Shown one piece after another: positions 2,215-57,369 of a stretch of DNA of 64,000 nucleotides; within the stretch, counting starts at the first letter, position 1; each line of letters opens with the position of its first letter. A program made the position numbers and the translations under genes. The stretch comes from Candidatus Saccharimonadales bacterium. GTDB taxonomy: Bacteria > Patescibacteriota > Saccharimonadia > Saccharimonadales > JAYRRP01. The stretch lies in NCBI GenBank assembly GCA_041906765.1, contig JAYRIP010000003.1:94760-158759 (forward strand). Direction: 5' to 3'. The notes under the pieces are model-generated. The model ran no database searches, was not told the DNA's origin, and saw nothing but the letters and a program-made list of their open reading frames with translations.

Positions 2215-2229
2215 TGTATACTCCTTGCT

Positions 2230-3048: not shown

Positions 3049-3063
3049 GTTTATACTTAGGAC

Positions 3064-5103
3064 ATGGACATCGATAGCCCGTTAACGGCGTTGCAGGGGG
3101 TCGGGTCGGCATTGAGTGCAAAGTTTGCGCGCTTGGGTATTCGGACGGTACGTGATCTGCTAATGTATTATCCTCGCCGTTATGATGATTTCTCACACAC
3201 GGTAAAATTACGTGCCCTCAAACCTGGACAAGTAAGTACGAAAGCTGTAATTACTCAGGTGGTCGGGCGTTATGTCCGTGCTGGCCTGCATGTATGTGAA
3301 GCGCTCGTTAGTGATGATACCGGTAGTGCACGACTAGTTTGGTTTAATCAACCGTACCGTTTACACACTGTCAAAAAAAACCAGGAATATTTTATTGCCG
3401 GACAGTTTGGCTTAAAGAACAATCGCCTGGCGATCACAAACCCTTCAATTGAGCTGGCTAGCGAGATGCCGATTCACACAGCAAGAATTGTACCGATCTA
3501 TCGTGAGACAAAGGGCTTAACATCACCTCAGATACGTCGCACGTTACGTGCGGCCCAAGTTTTGATTCAGAATCTTCCGGAGACACTACCAGCGTGGATG
3601 GTGCGTCAATATAAGCTATTGCCCCGTGCTGAAGCGGTTTGGGCCGTCCATTTCCCCTCACGCACGGCACAACTGGAGATAGCACGTCGACGACTAGGTT
3701 TCGAAGAACTGTTAGAGCTTTGTCTGGCGGGTCTTATGAATCGACTTGATGTTGAATCTGTTGCTGCACGCAAAATACCATTCAATCAAACTCTAGCCCG
3801 CAAATTTGTATCTCATTTGCCGTTCCAGTTGACAGATGATCAACGCCGGGCAGTCTGGCAAATTTATCAGGATATGGATCGACCACGACCAATGAATCGG
3901 CTGGTCGAGGGAGATGTCGGGTCAGGAAAAACCGTTGTGGCAGCGATGGCTGCAGTGATGGCAATGGCTGAGGGTTTTCAAGTGGCTATGATGGCACCAA
4001 CTGAGCTGCTGGCGCGCCAACACGCGGATACGTTGCATACATTACTCAAACCGCTTGGGTATCATGAGTCGGTAAGCTTACTGGTCGGCGGTCTGAGCGC
4101 ATCAGCAAAGTTGTGCGCACACAAGGGAATAGCCGATGGAACCATTCGTCTTATAGTGGGTACTCACGCATTGGTACAGGAAAAGGTGGCCATGCCGGAC
4201 TTAGGGTTGGCAATTATTGACGAGCAGCATCGTTTTGGGGTAGATCAACGCCGAGCCTTGCAGGCAAAAGCCGGCACTGTACCGCATTTACTCAGTATGA
4301 CAGCAACTCCAATTCCGAGAAGTCTTGCACTAACAGTCTACGGTGAGCTTGAGGTGTCTATTTTAGCCATGAAGCCATCTAGTCGCAAACAAATAAAAAC
4401 TGCTCTCGTTACATTCAACGGGCGAGCAGATGTTTACAAAGAAATTGCCCAACAAGTCAGCAAAGGCAGACAGGCATTCGTGGTCTGCCCATCAATAGAA
4501 GCTGGTAACAATGCAACTGTGCGTCGTTCGGCACAGCAAACTTACCAAGAACTAACACAAGGGCTACTGGCTCGGTATAAAATTGGTTTGTTACATGGCA
4601 AGCTGAAGACAGCAGATAAGAACCAAATAATGCAACAGTTCGTGGATGGCAAATTGGATGTGCTGGTTGCAACTACTGTGATAGAGGTAGGGGTAGATGT
4701 GCCAAATGCGACATCAATGGTGATCGAGAATGCTGATTATTTTGGCTTGGCGCAGCTACATCAATTGCGAGGACGCATCGGGCGTGGTCACCACCAGGGT
4801 TATTGTTATTTGGTTACCAGTGATACTGGTTTACCCAGCCCACGATTAAATGCTATTGCTACTTCGACAGACGGGTTTAAGCTAGCAGAACTTGACCTAC
4901 GTCTCAGAGGCCCTGGGGCAATTTATGGAACACTACAGCACGGTCAACTGGATTTACGTATCGCAACTTTGACTGATGTCCACCTGATTGCTGAGGCTCG
5001 TTCGGCGGCTCATGAGTTTATCAATCGTGGACACACTCTGTTACAATATAAAGAACTGGGCACAAGGGTGACCCGCTTTCGCCAAATCACTACTTTGAAC
5101 TAA
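3064..5103 (+). CDS. recG: ATP-dependent DNA helicase RecG
   Basis: 679 aa. N-terminal wedge region plus SF2 helicase motifs GDVGSGKT, IIDEQHRFG, MTATPIPR and QLHQLRGRIGRG. Confidence 0.95.
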   Translation: MDIDSPLTALQGVGSALSAKFARLGIRTVRDLLMYYPRRYDDFSHTVKLRALKPGQVSTKAVITQVVGRYVRAGLHVCEALVSDDTGSARLVWFNQPYRLHTVKKNQEYFIAGQFGLKNNRLAITNPSIELASEMPIHTARIVPIYRETKGLTSPQIRRTLRAAQVLIQNLPETLPAWMVRQYKLLPRAEAVWAVHFPSRTAQLEIARRRLGFEELLELCLAGLMNRLDVESVAARKIPFNQTLARKFVSHLPFQLTDDQRRAVWQIYQDMDRPRPMNRLVEGDVGSGKTVVAAMAAVMAMAEGFQVAMMAPTELLARQHADTLHTLLKPLGYHESVSLLVGGLSASAKLCAHKGIADGTIRLIVGTHALVQEKVAMPDLGLAIIDEQHRFGVDQRRALQAKAGTVPHLLSMTATPIPRSLALTVYGELEVSILAMKPSSRKQIKTALVTFNGRADVYKEIAQQVSKGRQAFVVCPSIEAGNNATVRRSAQQTYQELTQGLLARYKIGLLHGKLKTADKNQIMQQFVDGKLDVLVATTVIEVGVDVPNATSMVIENADYFGLAQLHQLRGRIGRGHHQGYCYLVTSDTGLPSPRLNAIATSTDGFKLAELDLRLRGPGAIYGTLQHGQLDLRIATLTDVHLIAEARSAAHEFINRGHTLLQYKELGTRVTRFRQITTLN

Positions 5104-24290: not shown

Positions 24291-24836
24291 TCAATGATCA
24301 CCTTTGCCTAACTCTAGCATCAATGAACCGATTTGCTTAGTCATCAATATCGATCTTGGTATTGCTTCTAAAAACCGTGCCATTCGTACACCGGGATGTT
24401 GATGATCTCCTGCAGGCATAGTGAGAAAGAATCTGCTGTAGTCAGCTCTTTTAGCTGCGAAATAGTTTTTTAGTTGATCATCTACGAAGGCTGCTTCCTC
24501 TGGTTCAACCTTGTGTCTTAAGGTAGCGTACTGAAGCATCTGCGGACTGGGTTTTTTATCAAAGCCCAAAGCGGGTGATATGATTTCGTCAACTTGAGGC
24601 AGTTGTGATTCCACTTCATCCAGAAATCCTTGATCTCTATTGTTGGTGATCAATGCAATCTTTACTCCGTGTGTTGCTATTTCTCCGATTTGTTTGGCTG
24701 CCGAGGGAAAAATCTCGGGGTTATGGTAGTCCGTCAGGACGTTCTCTATGTCCACACCAATCATTTTGATTCCATTTGCGTGAATATCGTCGATAACATT
24801 TATGTCAGTAAATTGTTCTCTGTAGATTGTTTTCAT
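24291..24836 (-). CDS. HAD-superfamily phosphatase (YqeG-like subfamily IIIA)
   Basis: 181 aa. Motif I-like IGVDIENVLT, ALITNN, KKPSP and FVDDQ. Antisense to the surrounding ribosomal genes. Confidence 0.7.
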   Translation of the reverse strand: MKTIYREQFTDINVIDDIHANGIKMIGVDIENVLTDYHNPEIFPSAAKQIGEIATHGVKIALITNNRDQGFLDEVESQLPQVDEIISPALGFDKKPSPQMLQYATLRHKVEPEEAAFVDDQLKNYFAAKRADYSRFFLTMPAGDHQHPGVRMARFLEAIPRSILMTKQIGSLMLELGKGDH

Positions 24837-40858: not shown

Positions 40859-41713
40859 ATGCCATCCTATAAAGTATCTACTGAAGATCAAAACAAGCGG
40901 GCAGATGTATTTTTGGCTGCACAAACAGACCTGAATCGCTCCTCGCTCAAGAAACTATTTGCGACCGGGCAGGTACAGATCGATCAAACTGCCATTAAAG
41001 CTGGCTACAACCTAAAGACTGGTGAGGTCATTGCCGTTCATCTGCCAAAAGCATCTATCCAAGAAGTAAAATTAGACATACTCTACCGTGATGATGACTG
41101 TGTAGTTATCAACAAACCGACAGGTATGTTGAGCCATAGTAAGGGTGCCTATCTGGAAGAGCCTACCGTGGCCAGTTCATTAGTACCTTGGTTAAAAGAC
41201 CTTGGTGGCGAGCGAGCAGGCATTGTACATCGGCTTGATCGGGCAACTTCCGGTGTTATGATTTGTGCCCGGACAAAAGAAGCTATGAAAACGCTGCAAC
41301 GCCAATTTGCCAAACGCACAGTAGTAAAACGTTACCATGCAATTACTCAAGGTGTACCCAAGCCTACAGAAGCTGTTATCGATATGCCGATCAGCCGCAA
41401 CCCGCATAAGCCCCAAACATTTACCACTCATTTGAGCGGTAAATCTGCAACCACGCACTACAAGGTAATCGAAGCACGAAACGATAAGGCGCTCGTACTA
41501 CTCGAACCACGCACCGGCCGTACCCACCAACTCCGGGTACATTTGCAGAAAATTGGCGCACCAATAGTGGGGGATACCATTTATGGTGGTCCTTTGGCTG
41601 ATCGGCTGTATTTACATGCATCATCATTAGAAATCACCTTGCCAAATAAAGAAAGACGTACGTTCACTGTACCACTGCCACCGGAATTTCAAGAAGCACT
41701 GGAAACAAAATAA
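40859..41713 (+). CDS. RluA-family pseudouridine synthase (RluD-like, with S4 domain)
   Basis: 284 aa. N-terminal S4-like region and catalytic motif HRLDRATSGVMICA. Confidence 0.88.
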   Translation: MPSYKVSTEDQNKRADVFLAAQTDLNRSSLKKLFATGQVQIDQTAIKAGYNLKTGEVIAVHLPKASIQEVKLDILYRDDDCVVINKPTGMLSHSKGAYLEEPTVASSLVPWLKDLGGERAGIVHRLDRATSGVMICARTKEAMKTLQRQFAKRTVVKRYHAITQGVPKPTEAVIDMPISRNPHKPQTFTTHLSGKSATTHYKVIEARNDKALVLLEPRTGRTHQLRVHLQKIGAPIVGDTIYGGPLADRLYLHASSLEITLPNKERRTFTVPLPPEFQEALETK

Positions 41714-42582
41714 TGGATCTTCTTCTGCACCCAGATAGCCGACATCAACTAGACCATGTAGTACAAGACATGCCGCAAGCCATACTTATTATTGCTCCCG
41801 ATGGTGCCGGCAAATCTACATTGGTCCGTTATTTAACTTCGCAGCTTCTTAAAGTAGATCAGAATAAGCTCAGTAATTATCCGTATTACCATGAAGTAGG
41901 TGACGGTGAAAAGTCAATAACAATAGAGGATGTTCGTACACTGCAATCCCAATCACGTCTTAAGACACCCGGGCAAGCGGCAGTCCGACGGGTTTTTTCG
42001 TTATTAGGCGCAGATAACATGACACTTGAGGCGCAAAACGCCCTTCTGAAGCTCTTGGAAGCACCACCGACAGATACTATCCTCCTGCTCACTGCCACTT
42101 ATCCCAACAATCTCTTACCCACAATCCGTTCACGCACACAGGTCATTCCTATCAAGCCGCCCACTCTAAGCCAAGCCAGCATGTACTTCACTTCACAAGG
42201 ATTTGCAGAAAGTGATATTCGCAAAGCATATTTATTGAGTGAAGGTAGTATGGGTTTATTGAGCGCGTTACTTCACCATCAAAGCGACCATCACTTGTCA
42301 AAAGCTATAGAAGAGACAAAAAGCCTTCTCAAACTACCCGTTTATGAGCGGCTCGTAAGGTTAGAAAAAATATCTAAGAACCAAGAGATCGAGCCAATCG
42401 TTTTGCTCGATGCTTTAGGGCGTGTTTGTCGAGCATTACTGCAGGAATCAGCCAAGCGTGGTGATAGAGAATCGACAGCTAGATTTCGTAAAATTCTTGC
42501 GAATATCTCCAACTCAGAAATTTATCTTGCAGCAAATGTTTCCAGCAAATTGGTTATGACTGAGCTGGCGTTGCACATATAG
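41713..42582 (+). CDS. holB: DNA polymerase III subunit delta'
   Basis: 289 aa. AAA+ clamp-loader pattern IIAPDGAGKSTL, NALLKLLEAPP and SRTQVI (the SRC-like position). Confidence 0.75.
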   Translation: MDLLLHPDSRHQLDHVVQDMPQAILIIAPDGAGKSTLVRYLTSQLLKVDQNKLSNYPYYHEVGDGEKSITIEDVRTLQSQSRLKTPGQAAVRRVFSLLGADNMTLEAQNALLKLLEAPPTDTILLLTATYPNNLLPTIRSRTQVIPIKPPTLSQASMYFTSQGFAESDIRKAYLLSEGSMGLLSALLHHQSDHHLSKAIEETKSLLKLPVYERLVRLEKISKNQEIEPIVLLDALGRVCRALLQESAKRGDRESTARFRKILANISNSEIYLAANVSSKLVMTELALHI

Positions 42583-42604: not shown

Positions 42605-43258
42605 ATGCTGGAGCTTTTAATGGTGTTAGGCTTTGGGGCCATCGCAGTTCACGGCGCAAATGTACGCGATGAGGAGCTCACTGGTTTGCCTCGTAGAATT
42701 AGCGACAAACTGGGCCGTCTGTGGGATATCGCCCATCAAGGGATGCGGGAAAACCGTTTTTTGCGGGCTGAGAAAGCATTATTAACGATTCTTAAAATTG
42801 ACCAAAAGAACGCAGCGGCTTATAACCGGCTCGGTATCCTCTATGCCAAACAAAAAGAATACAAAGATGCCATCGACTGCTTCGAAATAGCCTCAAGTAT
42901 CGAGTCAACACCATCCAGCTTACATAACTTGGGTCTTATCTACTACGAGACCGAAAACTATGAAAAGGCTGCTGTAGCCTTTGAGCGCGCCATGTCACTC
43001 GAAGATAACCTGGCTGCCCGCCACATTGCTTACGCCAAAGTGCAAGAGAAGTTAAGCAATGACAAATTGATGTTACAACACCTCCAAAAAGCGGTGGAAC
43101 TAGAACCGAACCAAGAAACGTACACCTTATTACACAAAGCCTACGAAGGGCGCGGTATGGAACTTGAGGCTGATCAAATCCAGGAGAAGCTCAAGAAACT
43201 CGTGGTTCCTTCAGGCAAGCCCAAACGAGTGCTTCGACCAAAAAGAGTTGTCATTTAG
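42605..43258 (+). CDS. TPR-repeat protein with an N-terminal hydrophobic segment
   Basis: 217 aa. Repeated TPR-like units (AAAYNRLGILYAKQKEYKDAIDCFEIA, LHNLGLIYYETENYEKAAVAFERA). Confidence 0.75.
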   Translation: MLELLMVLGFGAIAVHGANVRDEELTGLPRRISDKLGRLWDIAHQGMRENRFLRAEKALLTILKIDQKNAAAYNRLGILYAKQKEYKDAIDCFEIASSIESTPSSLHNLGLIYYETENYEKAAVAFERAMSLEDNLAARHIAYAKVQEKLSNDKLMLQHLQKAVELEPNQETYTLLHKAYEGRGMELEADQIQEKLKKLVVPSGKPKRVLRPKRVVI

Positions 43259-43317: not shown

Positions 43318-43393
43318 GCCGACGTAGCTCAGCTGGTAGAGCAGCTGTTTTGTAAACAGCAGGTCGCAGGTTCGAGCCCTGTCGTCGGCTCCA
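43318..43393 (+). tRNA. tRNA-Thr(TGT), encoded CCA
   Basis: Hand fold: acceptor GCCGACG/CGTCGGC; anticodon stem GCTGT/ACAGC with loop TTTGTAA; T arm GCAGG-TTCGAGC-CCTGT. Confidence 0.9.
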
Positions 43394-43412
43394 GATTTTA
43401 TTCTGGCGTTTC

Positions 43413-43553
43413 GCAGGGATAGTGAAGCGGTCAAACACGGCAGACTGTAAATCTGCTGGCATTCGCCTTCGGGGTGAGAACTGCCGGTGGCAGTTTGCAA
43501 GGAAATTCCGCCAGCGGCGGATTTCGGGGTCGCCGAAGGTGACTCGAATCCCT
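43413..43553 (+). ncRNA. Aberrant tRNA-Tyr(GTA)-like element: an intact 5' two-thirds, a 74-nt structured insertion at the T-arm position, and no 3' acceptor strand or CCA
   Basis: Positions 43413-43470 parallel tRNA-Tyr, with the same acceptor 5' strand, D loop, anticodon loop CTGTAAA and variable hairpin, and with compensatory stem substitutions. These are followed by two GC hairpins and then TCGAATCCCT. See findings. Confidence 0.45.
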
Positions 43554-43574
43554 TAAAAACTTAATCATTCTTGT

Positions 43575-43660
43575 GCAGGGATACTCAAGCGGTCAACGAG
43601 GGCTGACTGTAAATCAGCTGGCATACGCCTACGGGGGTTCGAATCCCTCTCCCTGCACCA
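43575..43660 (+). tRNA. tRNA-Tyr(GTA), type II, encoded CCA
   Basis: Hand fold: acceptor GCAGGGA/TCCCTGC; anticodon stem GCTGA/TCAGC with loop CTGTAAA; variable arm TGGCATACGCCTAC; T arm GGGGG-TTCGAAT-CCCTC; discriminator A plus CCA. Confidence 0.9.
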
Positions 43661-43683
43661 GGGATAGAAGGATTGTGAACGCT
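43658..43683 (+). repeat. Direct repeat copy 1, starting at the CCA end of tRNA-Tyr
   Basis: CCAGGGATAGAAGGATTGTGAACGCT matches copy 2 at 23 of 26 positions. Confidence 0.7.
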
Positions 43684-43697
43684 CAAAATTTCTGAAT

Positions 43698-44141
43698 ATG
43701 AAACCGCATAAAGAAGCAGTATCAATTATTGTTAAACAGCCAAGTGGTGATTTTTTGGTTGTAAAACGTCCAGATGACCCAAATGACGATTTGGCAGGTG
43801 TTTGGGGTTTTCCTGCAGTTACACTTCGTGATGATGAAGTTGAAATTGATGGAGTAAAACGAGCTGCCAAAGACAAGCTCGGAATAGAAGTAGATATTAT
43901 TAAAAGACTTGGCGAAAGCACTCATGAGCGGCCAAGGCACATATTAAAACTTGCTGATTACGAAGTCTTCGTTACGAAAGGAACCCCAAAAGTTCCTCAA
44001 TCAGATGCCTCAGTTACACAGTACACAGAGTGTAAGTTTACCGACGACCCTACAATATTAGTTCCAGCTGCTAAAAAGGGTTCACAATGTACTCAAATAT
44101 TTTTGGAAGACTTAAAAATTGACTGGCAAAACACGAATTGA
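43698..44141 (+). CDS. Nudix-fold protein with a degenerate Nudix box
   Basis: 147 aa. GVWGFPAVTLRDDEVEIDGVKRAAKDKLGI aligns to the Nudix box pattern G.W.FPGG..E.GE....A..REL.EE.G, but the REL.EE acidic residues are replaced by RAAKDK. Confidence 0.6.
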   Translation: MKPHKEAVSIIVKQPSGDFLVVKRPDDPNDDLAGVWGFPAVTLRDDEVEIDGVKRAAKDKLGIEVDIIKRLGESTHERPRHILKLADYEVFVTKGTPKVPQSDASVTQYTECKFTDDPTILVPAAKKGSQCTQIFLEDLKIDWQNTN

Positions 44142-44189
44142 CATATAATTACCCATGTATAGCGTTATAACAGTGTTGATTACGCTATA

Positions 44190-44215
44190 CCAGAGATAGA
44201 AGGGTTGTGAACGTT
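44190..44215 (+). repeat. Direct repeat copy 2
   Basis: CCAGAGATAGAAGGGTTGTGAACGTT. It follows a 9-bp hairpin (GTATAGCGT 44157-44165 / ACGCTATAC 44182-44190). Confidence 0.7.
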
Positions 44216-44250
44216 AGAACTTTTCTTTGATTAACTTTTGTTATTATTAA

Positions 44251-44795
44251 TTGATGACACAACTTACACTAGTGACCGGCAATTTAGATAAACTTACCGA
44301 ATTGCAGGCCGTCTTTCCACCAGAAGTTGAGTTAACTCACAGAAAACTAGACATTGTCGAAATTCAGGGCGAACCCAGCGAAATTGTTATCGACAAACTG
44401 CAGAGAGCTTATGAAGCAGTGAAAGGTCCAGTAATAGTTGAGGACGTTTCTGCCGAACTTGCTTGCCACAACGGCTTGCCCGACCATATATTAAGTATTA
44501 CGAGAAAAAGCTGGGTAAAGATGCACTTTGGAAGCTTGCCCAACATGCTGAAGATAAGTCTGCAGCCATCCGTTGTACTATGGGTTTCTTTAATGGAAGT
44601 ACAAAGACTATTGAGGAGGGCTTGGTGCACGGTAAAGTGGTTTCGCCCCGAGGAGAAAATGGATTTGGTTTTGATTTCGTATTTGTCCCAGAAGGCCACA
44701 CCAGAACAACTGCCGAAATGTCACCATCAGAAAAAAACCAAATTAGCTGGCGAGGTCTAGCTGCAAGAGCGCTCGTCGCAAGGTTGTACGGTTAG
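44251..44795 (+). pseudogene. rdgB: Non-canonical purine NTP pyrophosphatase (HAM1/RdgB/ITPase family) interrupted by a 1-nt frameshift
   Basis: The N-terminal part (LVTGNLDKLTELQ...VEDVSAELACHNGLP) is in the frame of 44251. The C-terminal part (PYIKYYEKKLG...FGFDFVFVPEGHTRTTAEMSPSEKNQISWRG) is in the frame of 44463. The expected GLPGPYIK junction is restored by adding one G near 44482. Confidence 0.8.
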
Positions 44796-44911
44796 ACTGT
44801 GCGAAAAACTAATTTATTCCTAACAGCGTCTATCATCCTGCACCACGATTTTCACATCTGTTATATTGAATAGAGCATTAGTACGTTAAAACTAAACACG
44901 GGAAACTAAAG

Positions 44912-45403
44912 ATGGCAAATGTAAAAAAATGGATCCTCAAAAGTAAGAACAATTCTCTGCAACCTGGTGAAGAACTTCTAGCCGCTTTAGGTGTTGCGGT
45001 AAGAGATAAAGTCAAATATATGGCTGCTGGGTATCTTGGTGGTGCAGTTGGCGAAGTGACTGCGGTAAAAAAACTCAACGAGCAGAATGAAGCAGACTTG
45101 TCCCAAAAAGTACCGTCAATTGAAAAATACCCACCTGGTGCGGTAATCATTGGGTTAACCCCGGCTCGATTATTAATATATAAACTAAATTTCTTAGGCA
45201 GACCCAAGGAGTTAGGCGCCGATTATGCAAGAAATGAGGTTGTGAAAGCAGAAATGGAGAATAAAAAAATAAACTACTCTCTAGTTCTATTTTTCGCGGA
45301 TGGCGGGAAGATTACTCATGATGTTAGTCTGACGCAAGGAGATGAACTTAAACAGTTTGTAGGCCTTATCAATCAACACCTAAGCAGCGTTCCTACTTCG
45401 TAG
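44912..45403 (+). CDS. Hypothetical protein (possibly a bacterial PH-like fold)
   Basis: 163-aa ORF. The pattern GAVIIGLTPARLLIYKLN loosely resembles bacterial PH domains. No confident assignment. Confidence 0.5.
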   Translation: MANVKKWILKSKNNSLQPGEELLAALGVAVRDKVKYMAAGYLGGAVGEVTAVKKLNEQNEADLSQKVPSIEKYPPGAVIIGLTPARLLIYKLNFLGRPKELGADYARNEVVKAEMENKKINYSLVLFFADGGKITHDVSLTQGDELKQFVGLINQHLSSVPTS

Positions 45404-45455
45404 CATGCTGCATTAAATTTGCTCTAAGCTGTAATTTGTTGTTATTGTATACGCT

Positions 45456-45887
45456 ATGAAAAATATGGAAGCCTTCTTGGCGTATCGACACACAGGCGAG
45501 CAACCTGAAGATTTGGAAGTTCTATTAGGTAATACACGCGATGCTCTTGCTCGAGCTGGGGTTAATGCATACTGTACTTTTTTTGATGAGGATGAATTTC
45601 AAAATAAATCATTTGGTGCTCGCCAGATAATGGACCATGCTTTTGAAACCATAGAAGCTAAAGATATGCTCTTTGTACTGCAAACCTCAGAAAATAAAAG
45701 TGAAGGTATGCTTATGGAAGTCGGATATTGCAGAGCTAGAGGCATCCCAGTTGTTGTGGCTTCTAAGAGTGACGTGGAGCACACTTACCTACCTGACATG
45801 GCCGATATCGCAATTAGATGGAATGATCCAGAAGACTTACATCAACAAATTGAAGCTACAGATTTTTCAGCTTTAGCGCGAAGCTAA
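45456..45887 (+). CDS. Nucleoside 2-deoxyribosyltransferase-like (Rossmann-like) protein
   Basis: 143 aa. MLFVLQTSENKSEGMLMEVGYCRARGIPVVV resembles the conserved Glu/Gly segment of the family. Confidence 0.55.
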   Translation: MKNMEAFLAYRHTGEQPEDLEVLLGNTRDALARAGVNAYCTFFDEDEFQNKSFGARQIMDHAFETIEAKDMLFVLQTSENKSEGMLMEVGYCRARGIPVVVASKSDVEHTYLPDMADIAIRWNDPEDLHQQIEATDFSALARS

Positions 45888-45959
45888 TTCACAATATAAT
45901 TATCACGCTGCACGCACTTATGCTTGCATGTACAATTACGTTAAGAGATTATTATAGAT

Positions 45960-46469
45960 ATGGAGCGACCAGAGCAATTCAGAGATCCTCAACTTGATAC
46001 TTCTGGTGATATTATTGGGTTTTATCCACGCGAATTTTATACCTTTGATAACTTCTCGTCATTCCAAGTCGATTACGCTGGTAGAAGATGGCCAACATCG
46101 GAACATGCGTATCAAGCTTCTCATTTCTTTGATACAGCACCAGAGCTCGTAGAGGAGATTTTTAATGCACGTTCAGCACACGATGCTTACAAAATTGCCA
46201 AGACCAATGGTCACAAGGCTCCTGAAAATTGGGAAGACATCAAGGTAAGTATTATGTACGAGATATGCAAGCTTAAGCTATTCCAGAATCCATATGTACA
46301 ACATAAACTTGAGCTTAGTGGCGACCTTAATATAGTAGAAGATTCCCCCAAAGACAATTTCTGGGGCTGGGGAGCCAACCGCGATGGTCGTAACGAGCTT
46401 GGCAAAATTTGGATGCGATTAAGAGACGAAGTGCGTTCTGGCGCTATAGAGGTCGAGCAAGTAGAATAG
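45960..46469 (+). CDS. NADAR (YbiA/DUF1768) family protein
   Basis: 169 aa. Motifs FYTFDNFSSFQVDYAGRRWPTSEHAYQASHF and NFWGWGANRDGRNELGKIWMRLR match the family hallmarks. Confidence 0.8.
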   Translation: MERPEQFRDPQLDTSGDIIGFYPREFYTFDNFSSFQVDYAGRRWPTSEHAYQASHFFDTAPELVEEIFNARSAHDAYKIAKTNGHKAPENWEDIKVSIMYEICKLKLFQNPYVQHKLELSGDLNIVEDSPKDNFWGWGANRDGRNELGKIWMRLRDEVRSGAIEVEQVE

Positions 46470-46514
46470 TTCTAATAGCGTAGATCGCGCTGCATCACTG
46501 ACAGAAGGGTATGA

Positions 46515-46952
46515 ATGTTAGAAATTATGGCTAAAGACAACTGTCCATTTTGTAGTCTTAACGAACGTGTCCTAAAAGAAAATGACAAAGCAATATTATT
46601 CTTAAGTAATCCAAGAATAATGGAGGGACATTTTTTAATATCCCCAAAGCGTCACGTTGAAAAGCCATGGGAATTAACAAATGACGAAGTTTCATCAATC
46701 TTTAATTTAGTACGCCTCGTACAGGAGTTTATTACCGAGAATTTAACTGACGGGTGTGATGTACGCCAAAATTATCGTCCATTCCTTAAACAGAGCAAGC
46801 TGAAAGTAAACCATGTTCATTATCATGTCATGCCAAGGAACTTTGAGGACGAGTTGTATCAAAAAGTCGAGAAGCATGAAACTCAAATGTTTAAGGATTT
46901 AGGCAATAACGAGCACGAAAGAATTGCCAAGATGCTTGAAGAAGCCTTATAA
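46515..46952 (+). CDS. HIT-family nucleotide hydrolase/transferase
   Basis: 145 aa. Histidine triad HVHYHVMPR. N-terminal CPFC. Confidence 0.8.
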   Translation: MLEIMAKDNCPFCSLNERVLKENDKAILFLSNPRIMEGHFLISPKRHVEKPWELTNDEVSSIFNLVRLVQEFITENLTDGCDVRQNYRPFLKQSKLKVNHVHYHVMPRNFEDELYQKVEKHETQMFKDLGNNEHERIAKMLEEAL

Positions 46953-47295
46953 CATCCTCTTTTCCGATTTGCGATAGATAGAGGTATTATTGATAAGATG
47001 CAAATATCCCTTCGTTTTGCTTATGCTTGCAATAAATATTATATGGAAAGAAAATGGTTCATATGTCCGACTTAGAAAATGAACACATTTCAGCAGCAGA
47101 AGTTGAATCAGCGGCCTTGAATGAGACTGCGTTGCACGCACTGCAATGTGAACGTTGTGCCAGATTGATAATCCACTATGCTCAGACTCGTGAAAATACG
47201 CCACTAGAGCAATACCCCACTGCGGAGTAGTTTACCCACTTTGTACTCAGTGCTGCATCACGAGTAGACGAAAACGGTAATTATGTTATAGTAAC

Positions 47296-48030
47296 ATGAT
47301 TATGCCTGCTATAGAGACGTTCGGAGTTATTGGATGCGGAGAGTTTGGTAGGATAGCTGCAACTCATTTAGCTCCTCCAGAATCTGAAGTCCAAATATTC
47401 GATTCAAACCCTGAAGTAGATATACCATCAGCAGCTCGAAGAGTAGGATTTGAAGCCGTATCTCGTGCGGATGTAATTATGCTTGCTGTCCCTTTTGATT
47501 CATATGATATTGTGCTGCCTAGATTAACTGATTGTGTCAGACCAAATTCACTAATTGTTGATGTATGTTCTGTGAAAATTCTCCCCGAAGAAACTTTTGC
47601 GAGCTACCAGCTATTGGAGCGTGAAAACACACTCATGACCCATCCATTATTTGGCTCACAATCTATTGATGATAACTCGGTTGATAAACACATCGTTATT
47701 ACTCAGCAATCAGGAAATCTGACCACTGAACTCTTAGACATTTGGCAGAGTAGAGGCATAACTACTACCGTTATGACAGCTGAACAACATGACCGTGAAA
47801 TGGCTAAAGTTCATGCCCTAACTTTCTTCATTGGGAGAGCTTTACTCGAAATGGGCGTGGAATCGTCTGCTACAAATACACCATACTTTAACGAACTACT
47901 AGATCTTATTGAAGTTGAAAAGCATCATAGTTTGGAATTATTTAATACCATACAGCGTCACAACCCATTTGCAGCAGATATGCGACAAGAATTCATGAAT
48001 AAGTTACATGGTTTAGACGACCGAATATAA
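47296..48030 (+). CDS. Prephenate/arogenate dehydrogenase (TyrA) family protein
   Basis: 244 aa. Rossmann motif VIGCGEFGRIA, plus ADVIMLAVPF, DVCSVK, HPLFGSQS and EQHDREMAKVHALTFF. Confidence 0.7.
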   Translation: MIMPAIETFGVIGCGEFGRIAATHLAPPESEVQIFDSNPEVDIPSAARRVGFEAVSRADVIMLAVPFDSYDIVLPRLTDCVRPNSLIVDVCSVKILPEETFASYQLLERENTLMTHPLFGSQSIDDNSVDKHIVITQQSGNLTTELLDIWQSRGITTTVMTAEQHDREMAKVHALTFFIGRALLEMGVESSATNTPYFNELLDLIEVEKHHSLELFNTIQRHNPFAADMRQEFMNKLHGLDDRI

Positions 48031-48168
48031 AAAATTTTGAATAAGCAGGATAAATAATTACATTCTGGATTAAAATAGTTGCTAAGTGGTACAGTATGTG
48101 GCACTATATCTTATATTTGCATATATGCTTTTTACTTTTAGATAATAGAAGCTCACAAGGGGAGAATC

Positions 48169-48600
48169 ATGGAGGCAGAAGAAGCTGGTCGTCTTTCGCA
48201 GAATACAGCTGAAAGAATGCGGATTATCGCTGAATCTGCTCGTGAAATTGCCCAACGAGCGGTTGAAGCAGAATCACAGAAACGGGAAGAAGCAATAACT
48301 GCCACTGTTCACGCGCAAAGAGAAATAGTTGATGCAGCAATAACTAAAACTGCTGAAATGGGCAGGAATTCTGTAAACCATAAGTACTCAGAAAGAATCT
48401 CGGCGTCCCGAAATTCACGTGAGGAAATAGCAGCTATTGAAGATTTTGCCAATATTGTCACTGAAAGGTTACAGGCGGGGTTGCAAAAAGACGGATTTGA
48501 TGTCCATACTCGAAGTGAAGAAGTTATTGATTTTCGTGAGAGTGAGAGTTTTAACAGCCCTCCCGAGTATTATGATACGACTATCACTATTCAGTGGTAA
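48169..48600 (+). CDS. Hypothetical Glu-rich protein
   Basis: 143-aa ORF preceded by GGGGAG 5 nt upstream. No domain recognised. Confidence 0.5.
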   Translation: MEAEEAGRLSQNTAERMRIIAESAREIAQRAVEAESQKREEAITATVHAQREIVDAAITKTAEMGRNSVNHKYSERISASRNSREEIAAIEDFANIVTERLQAGLQKDGFDVHTRSEEVIDFRESESFNSPPEYYDTTITIQW

Positions 48601-48670
48601 TCATTATCATTGTTTATACTTGCTCAAAACAGCGTAACCACGAATATTAATCGGTTAATAACAGATACAT

Positions 48671-50125
48671 ATGAGTGAGACTCCGGCATACCCAGAAGGT
48701 TTAAATCACATACAGCTTGAAGCAGCAGTTTGTAATAATGATTTCGCGCAAGAAGCGCTTAAGTACTATTACGAATCTGTAAAAGCCCATGAAGAAGGTG
48801 AAGATTTTGGTGAGTTTAGGCAAGGAGAAAAGCCGAAAGACATCGAAGTAGCAATGACTCAATTAGGTCTGGTCTTAGATAAACCGGCTGTAGGAGCACA
48901 CTTTGCAACGCATCTACCACTTAGCAGACAGATGGACGTATATTTTGATGCTATCATGTCCCCTAATCAAGCAGGTGAAGCAGTTCTGTCCCAGTTAGGA
49001 AACATCAAATCAAAACTTGAACAATACCCCGGTGCCTACTGTAAGTTTTTGATCCGTGAAATTGCTGATTTGCACCAGACTGATACCGTTGATATTGATA
49101 AAAACACGAGAGACGTCTTAACTCTAGTAAGTGATAAGGTACTATTTCCAGACCCAGATAATTCTGAGCTCGATAGGTTGATTAACTACATTAATTATTA
49201 CGATGACTATAGTTATGATGACTATATGAACGTAAACTTGTCAAGCAGCAAGAACGAATTAAAAACAGCACTTAATAATGGCTTAATGAAAGCTGATCGA
49301 CCTGATCTTTTGGTGGCCACGACCACGCAAAATTTAGAGCAAGTACAAGAAACTGCCACCCAATTCCAGTTGGTTGGCAAGAGTGAGCACGATCAACTTA
49401 ATTGGCGAGAAAAGCATCGCTTGCGTAAAGTTGCTCAGTCAGTGTTAAATATCACACGGTACTCTGTTCATTATTGGGAATCCAGCGAGGGCCGAAGCAT
49501 GGAGGAAGAGTTCCTTATCGTAAAACCTACTTCTAAAATATTAACTGCAGTGCTTGCCTTAGCACTTGTTGACGATCAAAAGAAATTACAATCCGACCAC
49601 TTTAATCATTGGCAAGTAACACCACGGGGGTTTGCTCAAAAATCTGCCAGATCATTTATTGAATCACGACCAAAGTTCATCACAGAGGCTTATAAGCGCA
49701 ACTTTCCCGAAGAAGCCTTGAAAGGAGGAGCTGATCTTGAGGATGTATTGGCGCTCCAATCCCTCCCTACTTCACTCCAACAAACCTCTGCGGAAGAGTT
49801 TTATACGAGATTGGTAGAAGACGAGAAAAAACCACCAACCGATAAATTGCTGGCAGCTGTTAGTATGGCAAAATTTTTTAATGATGAGATGTCGGGTACG
49901 AAACAACAAGCCTACTGCATGACATTGTTAGACATGCTTCAGTCAGAGACTAGCAGGATTAATGAGCTAGATGGACTCGTGGCAAAATCACAACGTCACC
50001 AAGAGCTAAGCAAAGAACTAAACTCTATTATCAAACAAATTAACCAAATAGGAAAAGCCGATCCTCGCGACGCATTGTTAAAAAGAGTTGAGATAATAAA
50101 GGATCAGCTTGCATCGGGGTATTAG
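48671..50125 (+). CDS. Hypothetical protein (484 aa)
   Basis: Long uninterrupted ORF whose stop lies 2 nt before the MazG-like gene. No domain recognised. Confidence 0.65.
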   Translation: MSETPAYPEGLNHIQLEAAVCNNDFAQEALKYYYESVKAHEEGEDFGEFRQGEKPKDIEVAMTQLGLVLDKPAVGAHFATHLPLSRQMDVYFDAIMSPNQAGEAVLSQLGNIKSKLEQYPGAYCKFLIREIADLHQTDTVDIDKNTRDVLTLVSDKVLFPDPDNSELDRLINYINYYDDYSYDDYMNVNLSSSKNELKTALNNGLMKADRPDLLVATTTQNLEQVQETATQFQLVGKSEHDQLNWREKHRLRKVAQSVLNITRYSVHYWESSEGRSMEEEFLIVKPTSKILTAVLALALVDDQKKLQSDHFNHWQVTPRGFAQKSARSFIESRPKFITEAYKRNFPEEALKGGADLEDVLALQSLPTSLQQTSAEEFYTRLVEDEKKPPTDKLLAAVSMAKFFNDEMSGTKQQAYCMTLLDMLQSETSRINELDGLVAKSQRHQELSKELNSIIKQINQIGKADPRDALLKRVEIIKDQLASGY

Positions 50126-50127
50126 AA

Positions 50128-50433
50128 ATGAATAACCTAACCATTAATCAGTACCAAGACCTTATAAAACAGTTAGTTATTGAGCGTGGTTTTGATAAAG
50201 AAACGGTGCCTGAAGTCTTTACTTTATTAGTAGAAGAAATCGGCGAATTGGCTAAGGCTATACGGAAGCAGAATGGACAAAAGGTTGACAAGAAATCAAA
50301 ACATCATGAAGTAGAAGAGGAAGCTGCTGACGTTTTTTGGTTATTGCTCGACTTATGCAATAGACTGGAGATTGATCTTGGCAAGGCCTTTCGTGACAAA
50401 GAAATCAAGAATACAAAGCGAAAGTGGGAGTAG
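50128..50433 (+). CDS. MazG-like nucleotide pyrophosphohydrolase (small, all-alpha type)
   Basis: 101 aa. EEIGELAKAIRK ... EEEAADVFWLLLDLCNRLEIDL matches the paired EExxE/D metal-binding helices. Confidence 0.75.
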   Translation: MNNLTINQYQDLIKQLVIERGFDKETVPEVFTLLVEEIGELAKAIRKQNGQKVDKKSKHHEVEEEAADVFWLLLDLCNRLEIDLGKAFRDKEIKNTKRKWE

Positions 50434-50531
50434 ATAAAGCTCTACTCTACGATCTGTTTATCAAAGCAACAGGATCTAATGTATCTCTTGTCTCCTATCC
50501 GCTATAGTATGTGATAAACTTGCTGTGATAC

Positions 50532-50547
50532 GCCGTCGTAGCTCAGC
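50532..50547 (+). other. Orphan 16-nt tRNA 5' fragment
   Basis: GCCGTCGTAGCTCAGC matches the first 16 nt of tRNA-Thr(TGT) at 43318 (GCCGACGTAGCTCAGC) at 15 of 16 positions. No remainder of a tRNA follows. Confidence 0.5.
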
Positions 50548-50561
50548 AATGAACAATCATT

Positions 50562-51161
50562 ATGATTTCTAAAGAAGCTCTAAATCATTTATATACTGAA
50601 GAAAAATTATCAGTTGCGAAGGTTGCCAATGAATTAAACGTTTCTGAAGGTGCCGTTAATTGGTGGATAAATAAACACGGGATTATAAAAAGAAACAAAG
50701 TCGATGCGGCATATGTGCAGCACAATAAAAGTTTTCACATTAGTACAATAAACAGTCTAGAAGATATGTTTTTGATGGGTTTAGGCCTAGGGCTATATTG
50801 GGGCGAAGGAAATAAGACTAGTCCCTATAGTCTTAGATTAGGCAATACTGATCCTATAATGATAAAAATTTTCGTCAAGTTTCTAATAAACATTTGTGGC
50901 GTTAACTCCAATGAAATAAAATATGGTTTGCAGATATTTAATGACGCAAGTCCTAAAACTTGCTTACAGTATTGGATGAAGGAGTTAAATTGCGAGAGAA
51001 CAAAGTTTCACAACATTATATCTGTAATACCTCCGCAAGGTAAGGGCACTTACAAGCGAAAAAACAAAAAAGGAGTTCTTCAGATATATGTAAACAACAA
51101 ACGTCTTAAAAACTGGATATCCACAGAAATTAATAATTGTGCCGACATAGCTCAGTGGTAG
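50562..51161 (+). CDS. HTH plus LAGLIDADG-like putative homing endonuclease; the ORF runs 21 nt into tRNA-Thr(GGT)
   Basis: 199 aa. N-terminal HTH LSVAKVANELNVSEGAVNWWINKHGI, then a single LAGLIDADG-like motif FLMGLGLGLYWGEGNK followed by LRLGNTDPIMIKIFVKFL. The sequence is visibly more AT-rich than its neighbours. Confidence 0.5.
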   Translation: MISKEALNHLYTEEKLSVAKVANELNVSEGAVNWWINKHGIIKRNKVDAAYVQHNKSFHISTINSLEDMFLMGLGLGLYWGEGNKTSPYSLRLGNTDPIMIKIFVKFLINICGVNSNEIKYGLQIFNDASPKTCLQYWMKELNCERTKFHNIISVIPPQGKGTYKRKNKKGVLQIYVNNKRLKNWISTEINNCADIAQW

Positions 51162-51215
51162 AGCACCATCATGGTAAGATGGGGGTCTCGGGTTCAAGTC
51201 CCGATGTCGGCTCCA
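51141..51215 (+). tRNA. tRNA-Thr(GGT), encoded CCA
   Basis: Hand fold: acceptor GCCGACA/TGTCGGC; anticodon stem CCATC/GATGG with loop ATGGTAA; T arm TCGGG-TTCAAGT-CCCGA. Confidence 0.9.
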
Positions 51216-51238
51216 TTTTTACATAAGAGTTAAATATT

Positions 51239-51763
51239 ATGAAATTCGAAGCTTCCACTCATGCACTTGCTTATTTGGGCGATGAAGAACACTTTCCTGA
51301 TGATTTAGACATATTGGGCGAAGCATTAGAGTTCATAACAGATGCTGGGTGCGAAATTACTGTGCCGCGTATTTGGATACAAGAAGACATCATAAGTGTG
51401 TATGGACTGCGTGAAGTAGCCTTTCCTGGGATTAGTATTGATAGATTAAATCATGAATCTACCACTGATTTGGCGCACTTAGTGCTAGATAGGTGGAAAT
51501 TGCCAGATCAAATGCTAGCCTCACACGAAATTAACATACGTTCGGGCTTCATAGATTTAGAGCTTGACTTACTACAGAACGAAAGCCTACCAAAAGAAGT
51601 GCCTGAGTGCATGCATGGTGGCATAGCGGATGCCTTGAGTACCACCTACGGAGCGGTTGCGTTATTTCAAGGAGCACCACTCGTTGTAAGAGATGCTTCA
51701 GCTATCTATAACGAAATAATGATCCCTGCTGCTCGCAACAAAGATCAATATAGAAGTAATTAG
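51239..51763 (+). CDS. Hypothetical acidic protein
   Basis: 174-aa ORF between tRNA-Thr(GGT) and rpmG. No domain recognised. Confidence 0.5.
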   Translation: MKFEASTHALAYLGDEEHFPDDLDILGEALEFITDAGCEITVPRIWIQEDIISVYGLREVAFPGISIDRLNHESTTDLAHLVLDRWKLPDQMLASHEINIRSGFIDLELDLLQNESLPKEVPECMHGGIADALSTTYGAVALFQGAPLVVRDASAIYNEIMIPAARNKDQYRSN

Positions 51764-51800
51764 GTTTGTAAAAAGCTTATAATCTGTTAAGATAAACTTT

Positions 51801-52004
51801 ATGGCCAAGAAAACTGATAAGCGCAAAATTATAGGCTTGGTGTGCGAAGAGAGCGGACACCGGCATTACTACACGACCAAAAATACCATGAACACCCCAG
51901 ATAAATTGCGTCTGCGCAAGTACAATCCATTACTCCGAAAATACACGTGGTATAGCGAGACCAAGAAAAGTTTGGGACGCAACGAAGTAAAAGGCCGCAG
52001 GTAA
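51801..52004 (+). CDS. rpmG: 50S ribosomal protein L33 (zinc ribbon largely lost, C-terminal extension)
   Basis: 67 aa. KIIGLVCEESGHRHYYTTKNTMNTPDKLRLRKYNPLLRKYTWYSETK aligns to the L33 pattern, with only one of the four Cys retained. Confidence 0.88.
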   Translation: MAKKTDKRKIIGLVCEESGHRHYYTTKNTMNTPDKLRLRKYNPLLRKYTWYSETKKSLGRNEVKGRR

Positions 52005-56586: not shown

Positions 56587-57369
56587 ATGAGCATGGATCA
56601 GTACAAAAATTTGATAAATCTAAACAACAAAACAGTCCTCATCACAGGCGCAGGTTCGGGTATAGGCCAAGCCGCTGCAGTGCTTTTTTCCAAACTAGGC
56701 GCCCGGCTTGCATTAATCGATATCAACCTCAGCGAGCTGGAAAAAACTAAGCAGCTATGCGCAGGCGAAGTTGATCTATACCAAGTTGATCTATCAAAAA
56801 AGAAAGATATTGAACAACTCTGGAGCCAACTAGCAACTACCCCCAATATCATCATCAACAACGCCGGCATTTATCCCTTTGTCAATTTTGACGATCTTGA
56901 TGAGAAAACACTGACACAAGTCATGGATATTAATCTGAATGCGATTTTTTGGATGTGTCAAGAGTTCGTTAGACACAAAAAGAAAGACGGTGTCCTTATC
57001 AATGTTTCTTCAATCGAGGCTATCTTGCCGGTCAAAAAAGACATGGCACACTACGGTGCAAGCAAGGCCGGAGTTATTGCTCTGACGCGTAGCCTTGCAC
57101 ATGACTACGGAAGGAAAGGGTTTAGGGCTAATGTAATAATGCCAGGCGCCATCATCACGCAAACGACAAAGAAGTTAATGATTAGCTCGCTTAAAAAAGT
57201 TGATCTCAAATTATTCAAAACCGGTTATGATTTCAAATCCCGGCTGCCGCTGGGCAGATGGGGGAAGCCGGAAGAAGTGGCTAAAGTGATGGTGTTTTTG
57301 GCAAGCGATATGTCGAGCTACGTCAATGGAGCTGTTTTAACAGTCGACGGCGGCTTCTTATCTTCCTAG
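56587..57369 (+). CDS. SDR-family oxidoreductase (FabG-like)
   Basis: 260 aa. Motifs TGAGSGIGQA, NNAG and the catalytic YGASKAG. Confidence 0.88.
   Translation: MSMDQYKNLINLNNKTVLITGAGSGIGQAAAVLFSKLGARLALIDINLSELEKTKQLCAGEVDLYQVDLSKKKDIEQLWSQLATTPNIIINNAGIYPFVNFDDLDEKTLTQVMDINLNAIFWMCQEFVRHKKKDGVLINVSSIEAILPVKKDMAHYGASKAGVIALTRSLAHDYGRKGFRANVIMPGAIITQTTKKLMISSLKKVDLKLFKTGYDFKSRLPLGRWGKPEEVAKVMVFLASDMSSYVNGAVLTVDGGFLSS

Follow-up and report, generated by a model that had tools for sequence, protein, structure and literature searches.

A flexible genomic island flanked by foreign tRNA-Tyr and tRNA-Thr(GGT) alleles in a Saccharimonadales bacterium, probably built by recombination at an insertion hotspot

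How do bacteria with very small genomes come by accessory genes? Saccharibacteria and other members of the Candidate Phyla Radiation (CPR) have tiny genomes, depend on a host for nucleotides and carry few classical mobile elements, and the gain of accessory genes in CPR bacteria is poorly understood. The question is raised by a locus of Candidatus Saccharimonadales bacterium (GCA_041906765.1), in which eleven open reading frames (ORFs), all on the + strand and thus on a single strand, as stated in the original prediction made from this DNA, lie between a tRNA-Tyr and a tRNA-Thr(GGT) gene. We analyzed the 64,000 nt around this locus (contig JAYRIP010000003.1, positions 94,760-158,759, forward strand), hereafter the window, to which all coordinates refer unless another locus is named. 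Our results indicate, with a probability of roughly 0.6, that positions 43475-51779 form a lineage-specific flexible island, built by recombination and carrying sanitation and salvage cargo, at a hotspot between these two tRNA genes. The locus thereby offers a concrete route for gene gain, namely a conserved tRNA/L33 hotspot with lineage-varying cargo, and in the window genome this gain coincided with the foreign replacement of two essential tRNA genes, without an integrase.

The limits of the island follow from comparison with relatives, which were located via the 90% cluster of the GH15 protein and which, where labelled by taxon, are all Saccharibacteria or Saccharimonadales; a holB scan of genome contigs recovered no relative. 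The closest are L003 (GCA_041910055.1) and L005, with amino acid identities to the window of 95% for the TPR protein, 97% for L33 and 87% for GH15. In both, the order is holB-TPR-Thr(TGT)-Tyr-[one 101-aa ORF]-Thr(GGT)-L33-GH15, and the Tyr to Thr(GGT) distance is 408-430 bp. Homology detected by blastn reaches position 43474 of the window and restarts at 51780, just before rpmG (L33), while the flanks themselves have diverged by 20-30% at the nucleotide level. The segment 43475-51779 (8.3 kb) is thus lineage-specific and absent from the closest relatives. It is wider than the 43661-51140 originally proposed, since it takes in both bounding tRNA genes and a 174-aa ORF.

Elsewhere in the Saccharibacteria, this interval differs greatly in size and content. 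It measures 1 nt in L106/L108, so that the proposal that the segment interrupts an otherwise contiguous tRNA group holds, and ~0.6 kb in L012 and L013, where it contains just a homologue of the last island ORF, of 199 aa. In L010 it spans 1.6 kb, with a MazG-like ORF (assigned by eye), a Nudix gene (assigned by Pfam) and again a homologue of the 199-aa ORF. In L099 (3512-9598) it reaches 6.1 kb and holds no 199-aa ORF but seven unrelated genes, encoding an Exo_endo_phos protein, an amino-acid kinase, an RRM protein, a D-Ala-D-Ala-ligase-like (Ddl-type) protein and three unknowns. No homology to the window was found for the L010 Nudix and MazG-like genes or for the cargo of L099, L013 and L003. 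Because interval size and cargo differ so widely, the Tyr-Thr(GGT) interval, which directly precedes rpmG (L33), is a recurrent insertion hotspot in Saccharibacteria and not the site of a one-off event. Tyr and Thr(GGT) adjoin or nearly adjoin in L106/L108 and in the closest relatives L003/L005.

Both bounding tRNA genes are xenologous replacements, and undecayed 5' remnants of the displaced resident genes survive beside them (Table 1). On the left, the resident tRNA-Tyr is cut off where the T-arm begins and is missing its 3' acceptor strand; ARAGORN and Rfam, on which all tRNA calls are based, do not call it a tRNA. The earlier inventory overlooked this truncated gene, although the three tRNA genes that it did list were all recovered, and within 40-60 kb Rfam detected nothing besides tRNAs. 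The functional tRNA-Tyr that follows is identical to the type of its own clade at just 77 of 86 nt (89.5%), with paired changes in the D stem and the anticodon stem. When metagenomes were scanned with a 41-mer distinctive of this gene, nine soil Saccharibacteria contigs (L105-L113) were retrieved whose tRNA-Tyr is 95-97% identical, although their housekeeping genes are far more distant from those of the window (TPR 75-79%, GH15 52-61%). Between remnant and functional gene lies a filler that matches nothing else in the window; its best match among the fetched loci is 18 nt long, which is at chance level (E 0.22). The remnant with its filler (43405-43575) folds stably (z = -3.2) and matches no Rfam family.

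On the right, the remnant GCCGTCGTAGCTCAG equals the first 15 nt of the tRNA-Thr(GGT) gene in L003/L005 and L099, all of which are without the 199-aa ORF; the L003-type allele reads GCCGTCGTAGCTCAGTGG... The functional gene is identical at 75 of 75 nt to that of L010/L011, which are distant by their housekeeping genes (TPR 69%, GH15 61%), whereas it shares only 65 of 75 nt (87%) with L003/L005, from which it differs by compensating paired changes in the acceptor and anticodon stems. As the 62-nt and 15-nt remnants carry no substitution while the flanks have diverged by the 20-30% given above, the truncations must be recent. Moreover, since the functional Tyr and Thr(GGT) genes match alleles of two different clades, we infer at least two acquisition events. 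When Thr remnants were sought upstream of the ORF in 40 other loci, no comparable one was identified: eight matches to the remnant motif were obtained, seven of which appear by position to be the intact upstream Thr(TGT), the remaining one being in L090. The module thus does not generally include such a remnant. Within the window, the 3' 25 nt of tRNA-Tyr and of tRNA-Thr(GGT) have no extra copy (<=3 mismatches) of the kind left at attachment sites. The junctions have the appearance of illegitimate joining within the resident tRNA genes and not of crossovers made by an integrase.

Table 1. Features of the tRNA-Tyr/tRNA-Thr(GGT) region, in window coordinates
Feature	Position	Strand	Evidence or remark
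tRNA-Thr(TGT), resident, left flank outside the insert	43318-43393	+	75/76 nt match to the L003/L005 gene
Resident tRNA-Tyr 5' remnant, 62 nt	43413-43474	+	62/62 nt identity to intact tRNA-Tyr of L003, L005, L030
Filler, 100 nt, between Tyr remnant and new tRNA-Tyr	43475-43574	+	T-arm-like fragment at 43531-43553
Functional tRNA-Tyr(GTA)	43575-43660	+	ARAGORN, Rfam
Direct repeat, copy 1	43657-43691	+	Begins at the ACCA end of tRNA-Tyr
Nudix-fold protein, degenerate box	43698-44141	+	Pfam NUDIX E 1.8e-7, 31.7 bits vs 21.1 cut-off
Direct repeat, copy 2	44189-44223	+	83% identical to copy 1; the pair brackets the Nudix gene
Ham1/RdgB inosine triphosphatase (ITPase) pseudogene	44251-44795	+	Pfam Ham1p_like split over two frames
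Unknown 163-aa protein	44912-45403	+	No Pfam, NCBIfam, PHROG or PADLOC match
Nucleoside 2-deoxyribosyltransferase-like protein	45456-45887	+	Pfam PF05014 (Nuc_deoxyrib_tr) E 3.2e-8, 34.2 bits vs 28.8 cut-off
NADAR (YbiA-type) protein	45960-46469	+	Pfam NADAR E 1.4e-26; TIGR02464 89.8 bits vs 73.7 cut-off
HIT-family hydrolase	46515-46952	+	Pfam HIT E 1.6e-11; HVHYHVM histidine triad present
TyrA-like (prephenate/arogenate) dehydrogenase	47296-48030	+	Pfam PDH_N E 2.1e-11
Unknown 143-aa protein	48169-48600	+	No family match
Unknown 484-aa protein	48671-50125	+	No family match; no consistent domain
Small all-alpha MazG-type nucleoside triphosphate (NTP) pyrophosphohydrolase	50128-50433	+	Pfam MazG E 3e-8; PHROG pyrophosphatase families; EExxE...E..D motif
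Resident-type tRNA-Thr(GGT) 5' remnant, 15 nt	50532-50546	+	GCCGTCGTAGCTCAG; cut in the D loop
199-aa ORF, N-terminal helix-turn-helix (HTH) and GLYWGEGNK core, candidate free-standing homing endonuclease	50562-51161	+	
Functional tRNA-Thr(GGT)	51141-51215	+	ARAGORN, Rfam; 5' end GCCGACATAGCTCAG
Unknown 174-aa protein, inside the insert	51239-51763	+	blastn extent of the insert
rpmG (L33)	51801-52004		

We propose that at least two recombination events built the island from DNA of other Saccharibacteria, one clade contributing the tRNA-Tyr allele and another the tRNA-Thr(GGT) allele together with the 199-aa ORF. Each event would have combined one homologous anchor with one illegitimate junction in a resident tRNA gene, in the T-arm for Tyr and in the D loop for Thr, leaving the 5' remnants behind, and neither would have involved an integrase. 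What set off the right-hand event may have been the 199-aa HTH/GEG protein, which would have cut the ORF-less tRNA-Thr(GGT) allele, whereupon the protein's own resistant tRNA allele and neighbouring DNA would have been dragged into the break. The cargo brought together in this way would comprise the MazG, HIT, deoxyribosyltransferase-like and NADAR proteins, the decayed Ham1 and Nudix genes, the TyrA-like dehydrogenase and four orphan proteins. That the 199-aa protein cuts ORF-less tRNA-Thr(GGT) alleles, and so promotes replacement of the tRNA and adjacent DNA, is suggested by analogy and is a tentative idea, to which we give clearly less than even odds.

The position and distribution of the 199-aa ORF bear directly on this idea. 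In the window, it starts 14 nt past the Thr remnant (15 nt past the portion identical to the gene of the relatives) and runs into the new tRNA-Thr(GGT), the TAG of whose D loop serves as its stop codon. Homologues number more than 150 and are ~195-200 aa long; the CPR groups represented include Saccharibacteria, Amesbacteria, Wolfebacteria and Pacebacteria. When one genome per GTDB species was scanned, 150 species representatives proved to encode a relative, mostly labelled CPR/Patescibacteria. In the five contexts inspected singly, the ORF lies between tRNA-Tyr and tRNA-Thr(GGT). It stands at the 5' end of Thr(GGT) in L010, L012, L013, L015 and L017, and in 38 of 80 further genome loci a tRNA-Thr(GGT) on the same strand begins at a distance of -44 to +44 nt from the stop of the ORF; most of the other loci lie close to tRNA genes for Tyr, Trp, Thr(CGT), Met or Asp. 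It is absent from L003/L005, L099, L102 and L106-L113. Most ORF-less Thr(GGT) alleles carry T5-C6 in the acceptor stem (GCCGTCG, GCCGTCT, GCCATCT), with L102 (GCCGCGA) as an exception, and none of the surveyed ORF-bearing alleles does, a difference that is only a lead given that the samples are phylogenetically non-independent. Moreover, seven distant homologues with the HTH and the GLYWGEG core (hidden Markov model E 1e-12 to 1e-22) were found on IMG/VR contigs of 45-497 kb (L114-L120, with the match at ~4001-4600 of each locus), all seven between tRNA genes within tRNA arrays. Several of these run into the neighbouring tRNA gene, and several ends translate the antisense of a tRNA T-arm (e.g., ...GFEPAS). 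With the viral homologues placed in tRNA arrays, besides the CPR loci, association with tRNA genes is a property of the family.

A side observation concerns how the ORF ends. It has no stop codon of its own and closes at the TAG of tRNA-Thr(GGT), at positions 8-10 or in the D loop, in the window, L010, L012, L013 and many of L019-L098, with overlaps of three classes (-10, -21 and -38 nt). If a co-transcript were processed by RNase P, this stop codon would be lost, which might keep expression of the 199-aa protein low.

As to what the 199-aa protein is, E82 of the GEG motif is invariant in the family, and there are weak Pfam LAGLIDADG_3 matches in 5 of 40 members (best E 0.0018). The top Foldseek matches in BFVD (E 1e-3 to 7e-3) are viral LAGLIDADG or DNA endonucleases. 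The original description of the ORF as LAGLIDADG-like is thus weakly supported. In profile comparisons, membership of the LAGLIDADG family failed: no Pfam LAGLIDADG model reached its threshold, the window protein gave no LAGLIDADG match even at E <= 1, and hhalign of the family against I-CreI (sequence verified) was negative, with a probability of 0.3%. A profile search of the PDB returned HTH matches only. Foldseek of the full-length and C-terminal models (predicted local distance difference test scores 91 and 95, the C-terminal model having 95) found nothing in the PDB at E <= 1e-3, the best LAGLIDADG-type matches of the C-terminal model being the TliVMA intein endonuclease domain (template modelling (TM) score 0.42, E 0.28) and I-Tsp061I (TM 0.36, E 0.39). 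In addition, ORF identity between genomes tracks flank identity (Spearman 0.59) with few incongruent pairs, e.g., L030, which points to mostly vertical inheritance with an occasional swap or loss. The negative I-CreI and PDB comparisons count against a LAGLIDADG-type nuclease, and the nuclease assignment, drawn from motif and predicted fold, is weak. The strong conservation and flank congruence agree better with a long history of vertical descent, or with a domesticated role in the cell, than with frequent homing.

The closest known parallel is SegB of phage T4, a free-standing GIY-YIG homing endonuclease in a tRNA cluster that recognises the conserved T-psi-C motif and causes itself and the surrounding tRNA genes to be inherited preferentially (PMC2330249). 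Like SegB, the window ORF is free-standing among tRNA genes, its distant relatives lie in tRNA arrays on viral contigs, and tRNA alleles beside it have been replaced, with breakpoints in tRNA arms. In contrast to SegB, the 199-aa protein has an HTH and a GEG core instead of a GIY-YIG domain, resides on a bacterial chromosome, is known here from sequence and not from cleavage, and is conserved at one site, tRNA-Thr(GGT), across CPR lineages, where it looks largely vertical. CPR genomes also abound in endonuclease genes housed in conserved RNA genes, among them LAGLIDADG homing endonucleases in rRNA insertion sequences, described in a paper that makes no mention of tRNA (PMC11270868). The motif of the window ORF resembles LAGLIDADG; however, those genes lie inside rRNA genes, whereas the window ORF stands next to a tRNA gene that it leaves uninterrupted, and it failed the LAGLIDADG membership tests. 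No description of the tRNA-abutting family was found in the literature. It is conceivable, though to our mind doubtful, that the ORF represents an undescribed family of tRNA-gene-targeting free-standing homing endonucleases, common to CPR bacteria and large (45-497 kb) viral contigs. If this is true, the enzyme would cut ORF-less tRNA alleles, force whole-tRNA replacement and carry neighbouring cargo along. The Tyr-Thr(GGT)-L33 locus would then be a nuclease-driven gateway for gene flow in bacteria without classical mobile elements, of which the window, with both displaced tRNA genes leaving undecayed remnants, would be a caught-in-the-act case, and the tRNA-abutting family, with its 150 species representatives and its members in viral tRNA arrays, would be the candidate enzyme behind such events.

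Several observations weigh against recent assembly by recombination and have to be set beside other explanations of the locus. Cargo homologues elsewhere are just 43-66% identical and no donor was identified, so that differential loss from an old island has to be considered. In addition, the distant L099 shares the Thr remnant type (GCCGTCG), and the remnant could hence have come from a donor and not from the recipient's own gene. A rather improbable explanation is accordingly that the region is old and vertically inherited, that is, that an ancestor had a large Tyr-Thr(GGT) interval including the 199-aa ORF, of which the relatives lost parts and the window lineage kept most. It would account for cargo homologues standing at the same locus in distant Saccharibacteria with identities near housekeeping-gene levels, for the correlation of ORF identity with flank identity, and for the presence of the ORF at the same site across CPR lineages. 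However, it is hard to reconcile with remnants that are free of substitutions between diverged flanks, and with functional Tyr and Thr(GGT) genes that match two different distant clades and not a sister lineage. Lower GC across the segment also speaks against it: the genes of the island have a GC content of 0.34-0.45, as compared to 0.462 +/- 0.022 for the 53 other genes of the window (Mann-Whitney p = 1.5e-6), a comparison limited by the fact that these reference genes are mostly ribosomal. The lowest value, 0.34, belongs to the last (199-aa) ORF, and the AT-rich right end and compositional deviation noted at the outset were thus borne out by per-gene GC within the window. Overall, the original view of a horizontally built, mosaic accessory segment is supported by its absence from relatives, by the contiguous group elsewhere and by this deviating composition. 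Another explanation, that of an assembly chimera, would fit the metagenome-assembled genome (MAG) type of the contig and the start of the Logan contig L001 (12.9 kb) inside the Tyr remnant. The exact window proteins were found solely in one NCBI contig and a few Logan assemblies. Nevertheless, L001 and L002 stem from two further sequencing runs and show 100% identity to the window over the junction of Tyr remnant and filler, the whole island and the right flank to GH15/GH57, which argues against an artefact, and the remnants have just the form expected of a genuine recombination junction in this lineage; a chimera is therefore highly improbable.

A classical tRNA-targeting island, i.e., a remnant of a prophage or of an integrative and conjugative element, or a tycheposon-like element, whose integrase has since been lost, would explain a segment that adjoins tRNA genes, contains partial tRNA copies, deviates in composition and is absent from close relatives. 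Partial tRNAs have indeed been described as scars of serial integrations in Prochlorococcus islands (10.1101/2020.12.28.424599), and those islands and their tycheposons share with the present one the tRNA-side hotspot, the streamlined genome, the varying cargo and the deviating composition. Similarly, classical integrase islands (PMC2704930) adjoin tRNA genes, have foreign composition and accessory cargo, and are patchily distributed. We nevertheless regard this explanation as quite improbable. As originally noted, there is no integrase: searches of Pfam, NCBIfam, PHROGs and PADLOC returned no tyrosine or serine recombinase and no phage structural or replication gene for any ORF, and neither the island DNA nor the 199-aa ORF protein matched phage records. 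In contrast to tycheposons, the present island thus has no tyrosine recombinase or other mobility gene, its host is a CPR bacterium, and its scars are 5' parts of resident tRNA genes, each followed by a complete foreign tRNA without any hybrid, and not half-tRNA repeats of the att type. In contrast to classical islands, it has neither a 3' tRNA fragment at its distal end nor a direct repeat of the tRNA 3' part, and its tRNA genes were replaced entire, not reconstituted at the 3' end. A tRNA-linked flexible region is hence familiar, whereas whole-tRNA xenologous replacement with surviving 5' remnants is new here. As to the cargo, an unlikely alternative is a conflict-related module, in which NADAR, Nudix, HIT, MazG, the deoxyribosyltransferase-like protein and the 484-aa orphan would act in defence or counter-defence by degrading nucleotide second messengers or reversing ADP-ribosylation. 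It draws on domain-level PADLOC matches (Nudix-PDC-S07, E 1.9e-10; HIT-ThsC, E 1.3e-8; NADAR-PDC-M42C, E 5e-6), on a match of NADAR to the "NADAR family anti-phage protein" model (E 3e-21), on PHROG relatives of NADAR and MazG, on a SAVED domain in one distant member of the 484-aa family, and on the location in a variable hotspot, as for defence islands. However, nothing matched at a system-level or curated threshold: the PADLOC matches are isolated and do not make up a complete gene set for any known defence system, partner genes of DarT, Thoeris and CBASS did not appear in that search, and NADAR scores 75 bits against an anti-phage cut-off of 240 bits while passing TIGR02464. Moreover, the island DNA has no phage matches and two of its genes are decayed. 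Accessory nucleotide sanitation and salvage, favoured over a conflict role because the same enzyme classes recur at the hotspot in L010, L042 and L102 (and purK/purE/purC-like ORFs in L020), is what the gene content suggests to us, if at slightly under even odds, the broken Ham1 and the degenerate Nudix box weakening the case for a selected sanitation module. In that event, sanitation and salvage of the nucleotide pool would belong to the exchangeable gene pool of Saccharibacteria epibionts.

The assignments of the cargo to Nudix, Ham1, Nuc_deoxyrib_tr, NADAR, HIT, PDH_N and MazG all lie above the curated Pfam cut-offs, in agreement with the folds originally recognized. The count of six nucleotide-acting genes among the eleven stands insofar as six families pass these cut-offs, but Ham1 is frameshifted and the Nudix box is degenerate. 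Profile positions 1-78 of Ham1 fall in 44251-44760 and positions 80-185 in 44463-44795; this split across two frames places near 44480 the frameshift that had been proposed, and the sequence is identical in two Logan assemblies. The Nudix box, read from the translation, is RAAKDK instead of the REUxEE of the MutT pattern, two of its three glutamates being lost, so that its description as degenerate holds. Judged by sequence, Ham1 and Nudix are probably inactive. By eye, the motifs HxHxHxx of HIT and EExxE...ExxD of MazG are present, and the deoxyribosyltransferase-like protein has its motif Glu. The TyrA-like protein reaches E 6.7e-26 against NCBIfam prephenate dehydrogenase models yet stays below their cut-offs.

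Parts of the cargo also turn up at this locus in other Saccharibacteria. Just three homologues of the 163-aa ORF were detected, at 65-66% identity, and the one in L102 comes immediately behind tRNA-Tyr, with a Nuc_deoxyri_tr2 gene next to it on the far side. In L042, a NADAR homologue (58% identity) lies beside a Nudix gene, adjoining Thr(GGT). The 484-aa family has 15 relatives detected among 1.84 billion representative proteins, and its best homologue (43-45% identity) is encoded directly after L33, at the same locus, in L099. Single members of this family match unrelated Pfam domains (RRM_1, SAVED, Peptidase_M60_C and others). The notion that the 143-aa ORF is a split-off N-terminus of the 484-aa protein was rejected by comparison, the 484-aa protein being simply ~110 residues shorter than its homologue. 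In L020, a Saccharimonadales MAG, the purK-, purE- and purC-like ORFs (1080-3734; recognized by eye from translations) are directly 5' of the pair of ORF and tRNA-Thr(GGT), and no tRNA-Tyr was found within 4 kb.

The direct repeats, the pseudogene and the orphan tRNA fragment that had been reported are all present. The 19-nt core of the 35-nt direct repeat occurs twice, as compared to 0.02 occurrences expected by chance. A repeat-like motif also follows tRNA-Tyr in L030 (3057-3077), with a looser form after tRNA-Tyr in L105, L111 and L112. A motif around TAGAAG...TGA accordingly trails tRNA-Tyr in several Saccharibacteria, and in the window it is doubled, with one copy on each side of the Nudix gene; it could be a promoter, a processing signal or a recombination site for single-gene cassettes.

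Upstream of the island, the window holds rpoB/rpoC, the S10-spc-alpha ribosomal protein genes, trpS, a pseudouridine synthase gene, holB and the TPR protein gene; downstream lie rpmG (L33), GH15/GH57 glycosidases, tRNA-Trp, secE, nusG and L11. Three further spots in these flanks drew our attention. Compared to L003/L005, the protein identity of holB (41713-42582) is 54% while that of the adjoining TPR protein (42605-43258) is 95%, and nucleotide identity climbs from ~70% to ~80% near 42.5 kb; this step could reflect differing constraint or a recombination boundary near the hotspot. At 56587-57369 (+), a short-chain dehydrogenase gene stands between a glycosyltransferase gene and the gene adjoining that of orotidine monophosphate (OMP) decarboxylase, at a site that holds a 520-aa unknown ORF in L003/L005 and is thus a second variable spot, 5 kb from the island. 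Finally, a HAD-family hydrolase gene (24291-24836, - strand) is set between tuf and the S10 operon in the opposite orientation; no other non-island gene has so low a GC (0.418), the AT skew dips locally, and the gene may represent a further small insertion among the ribosomal genes.

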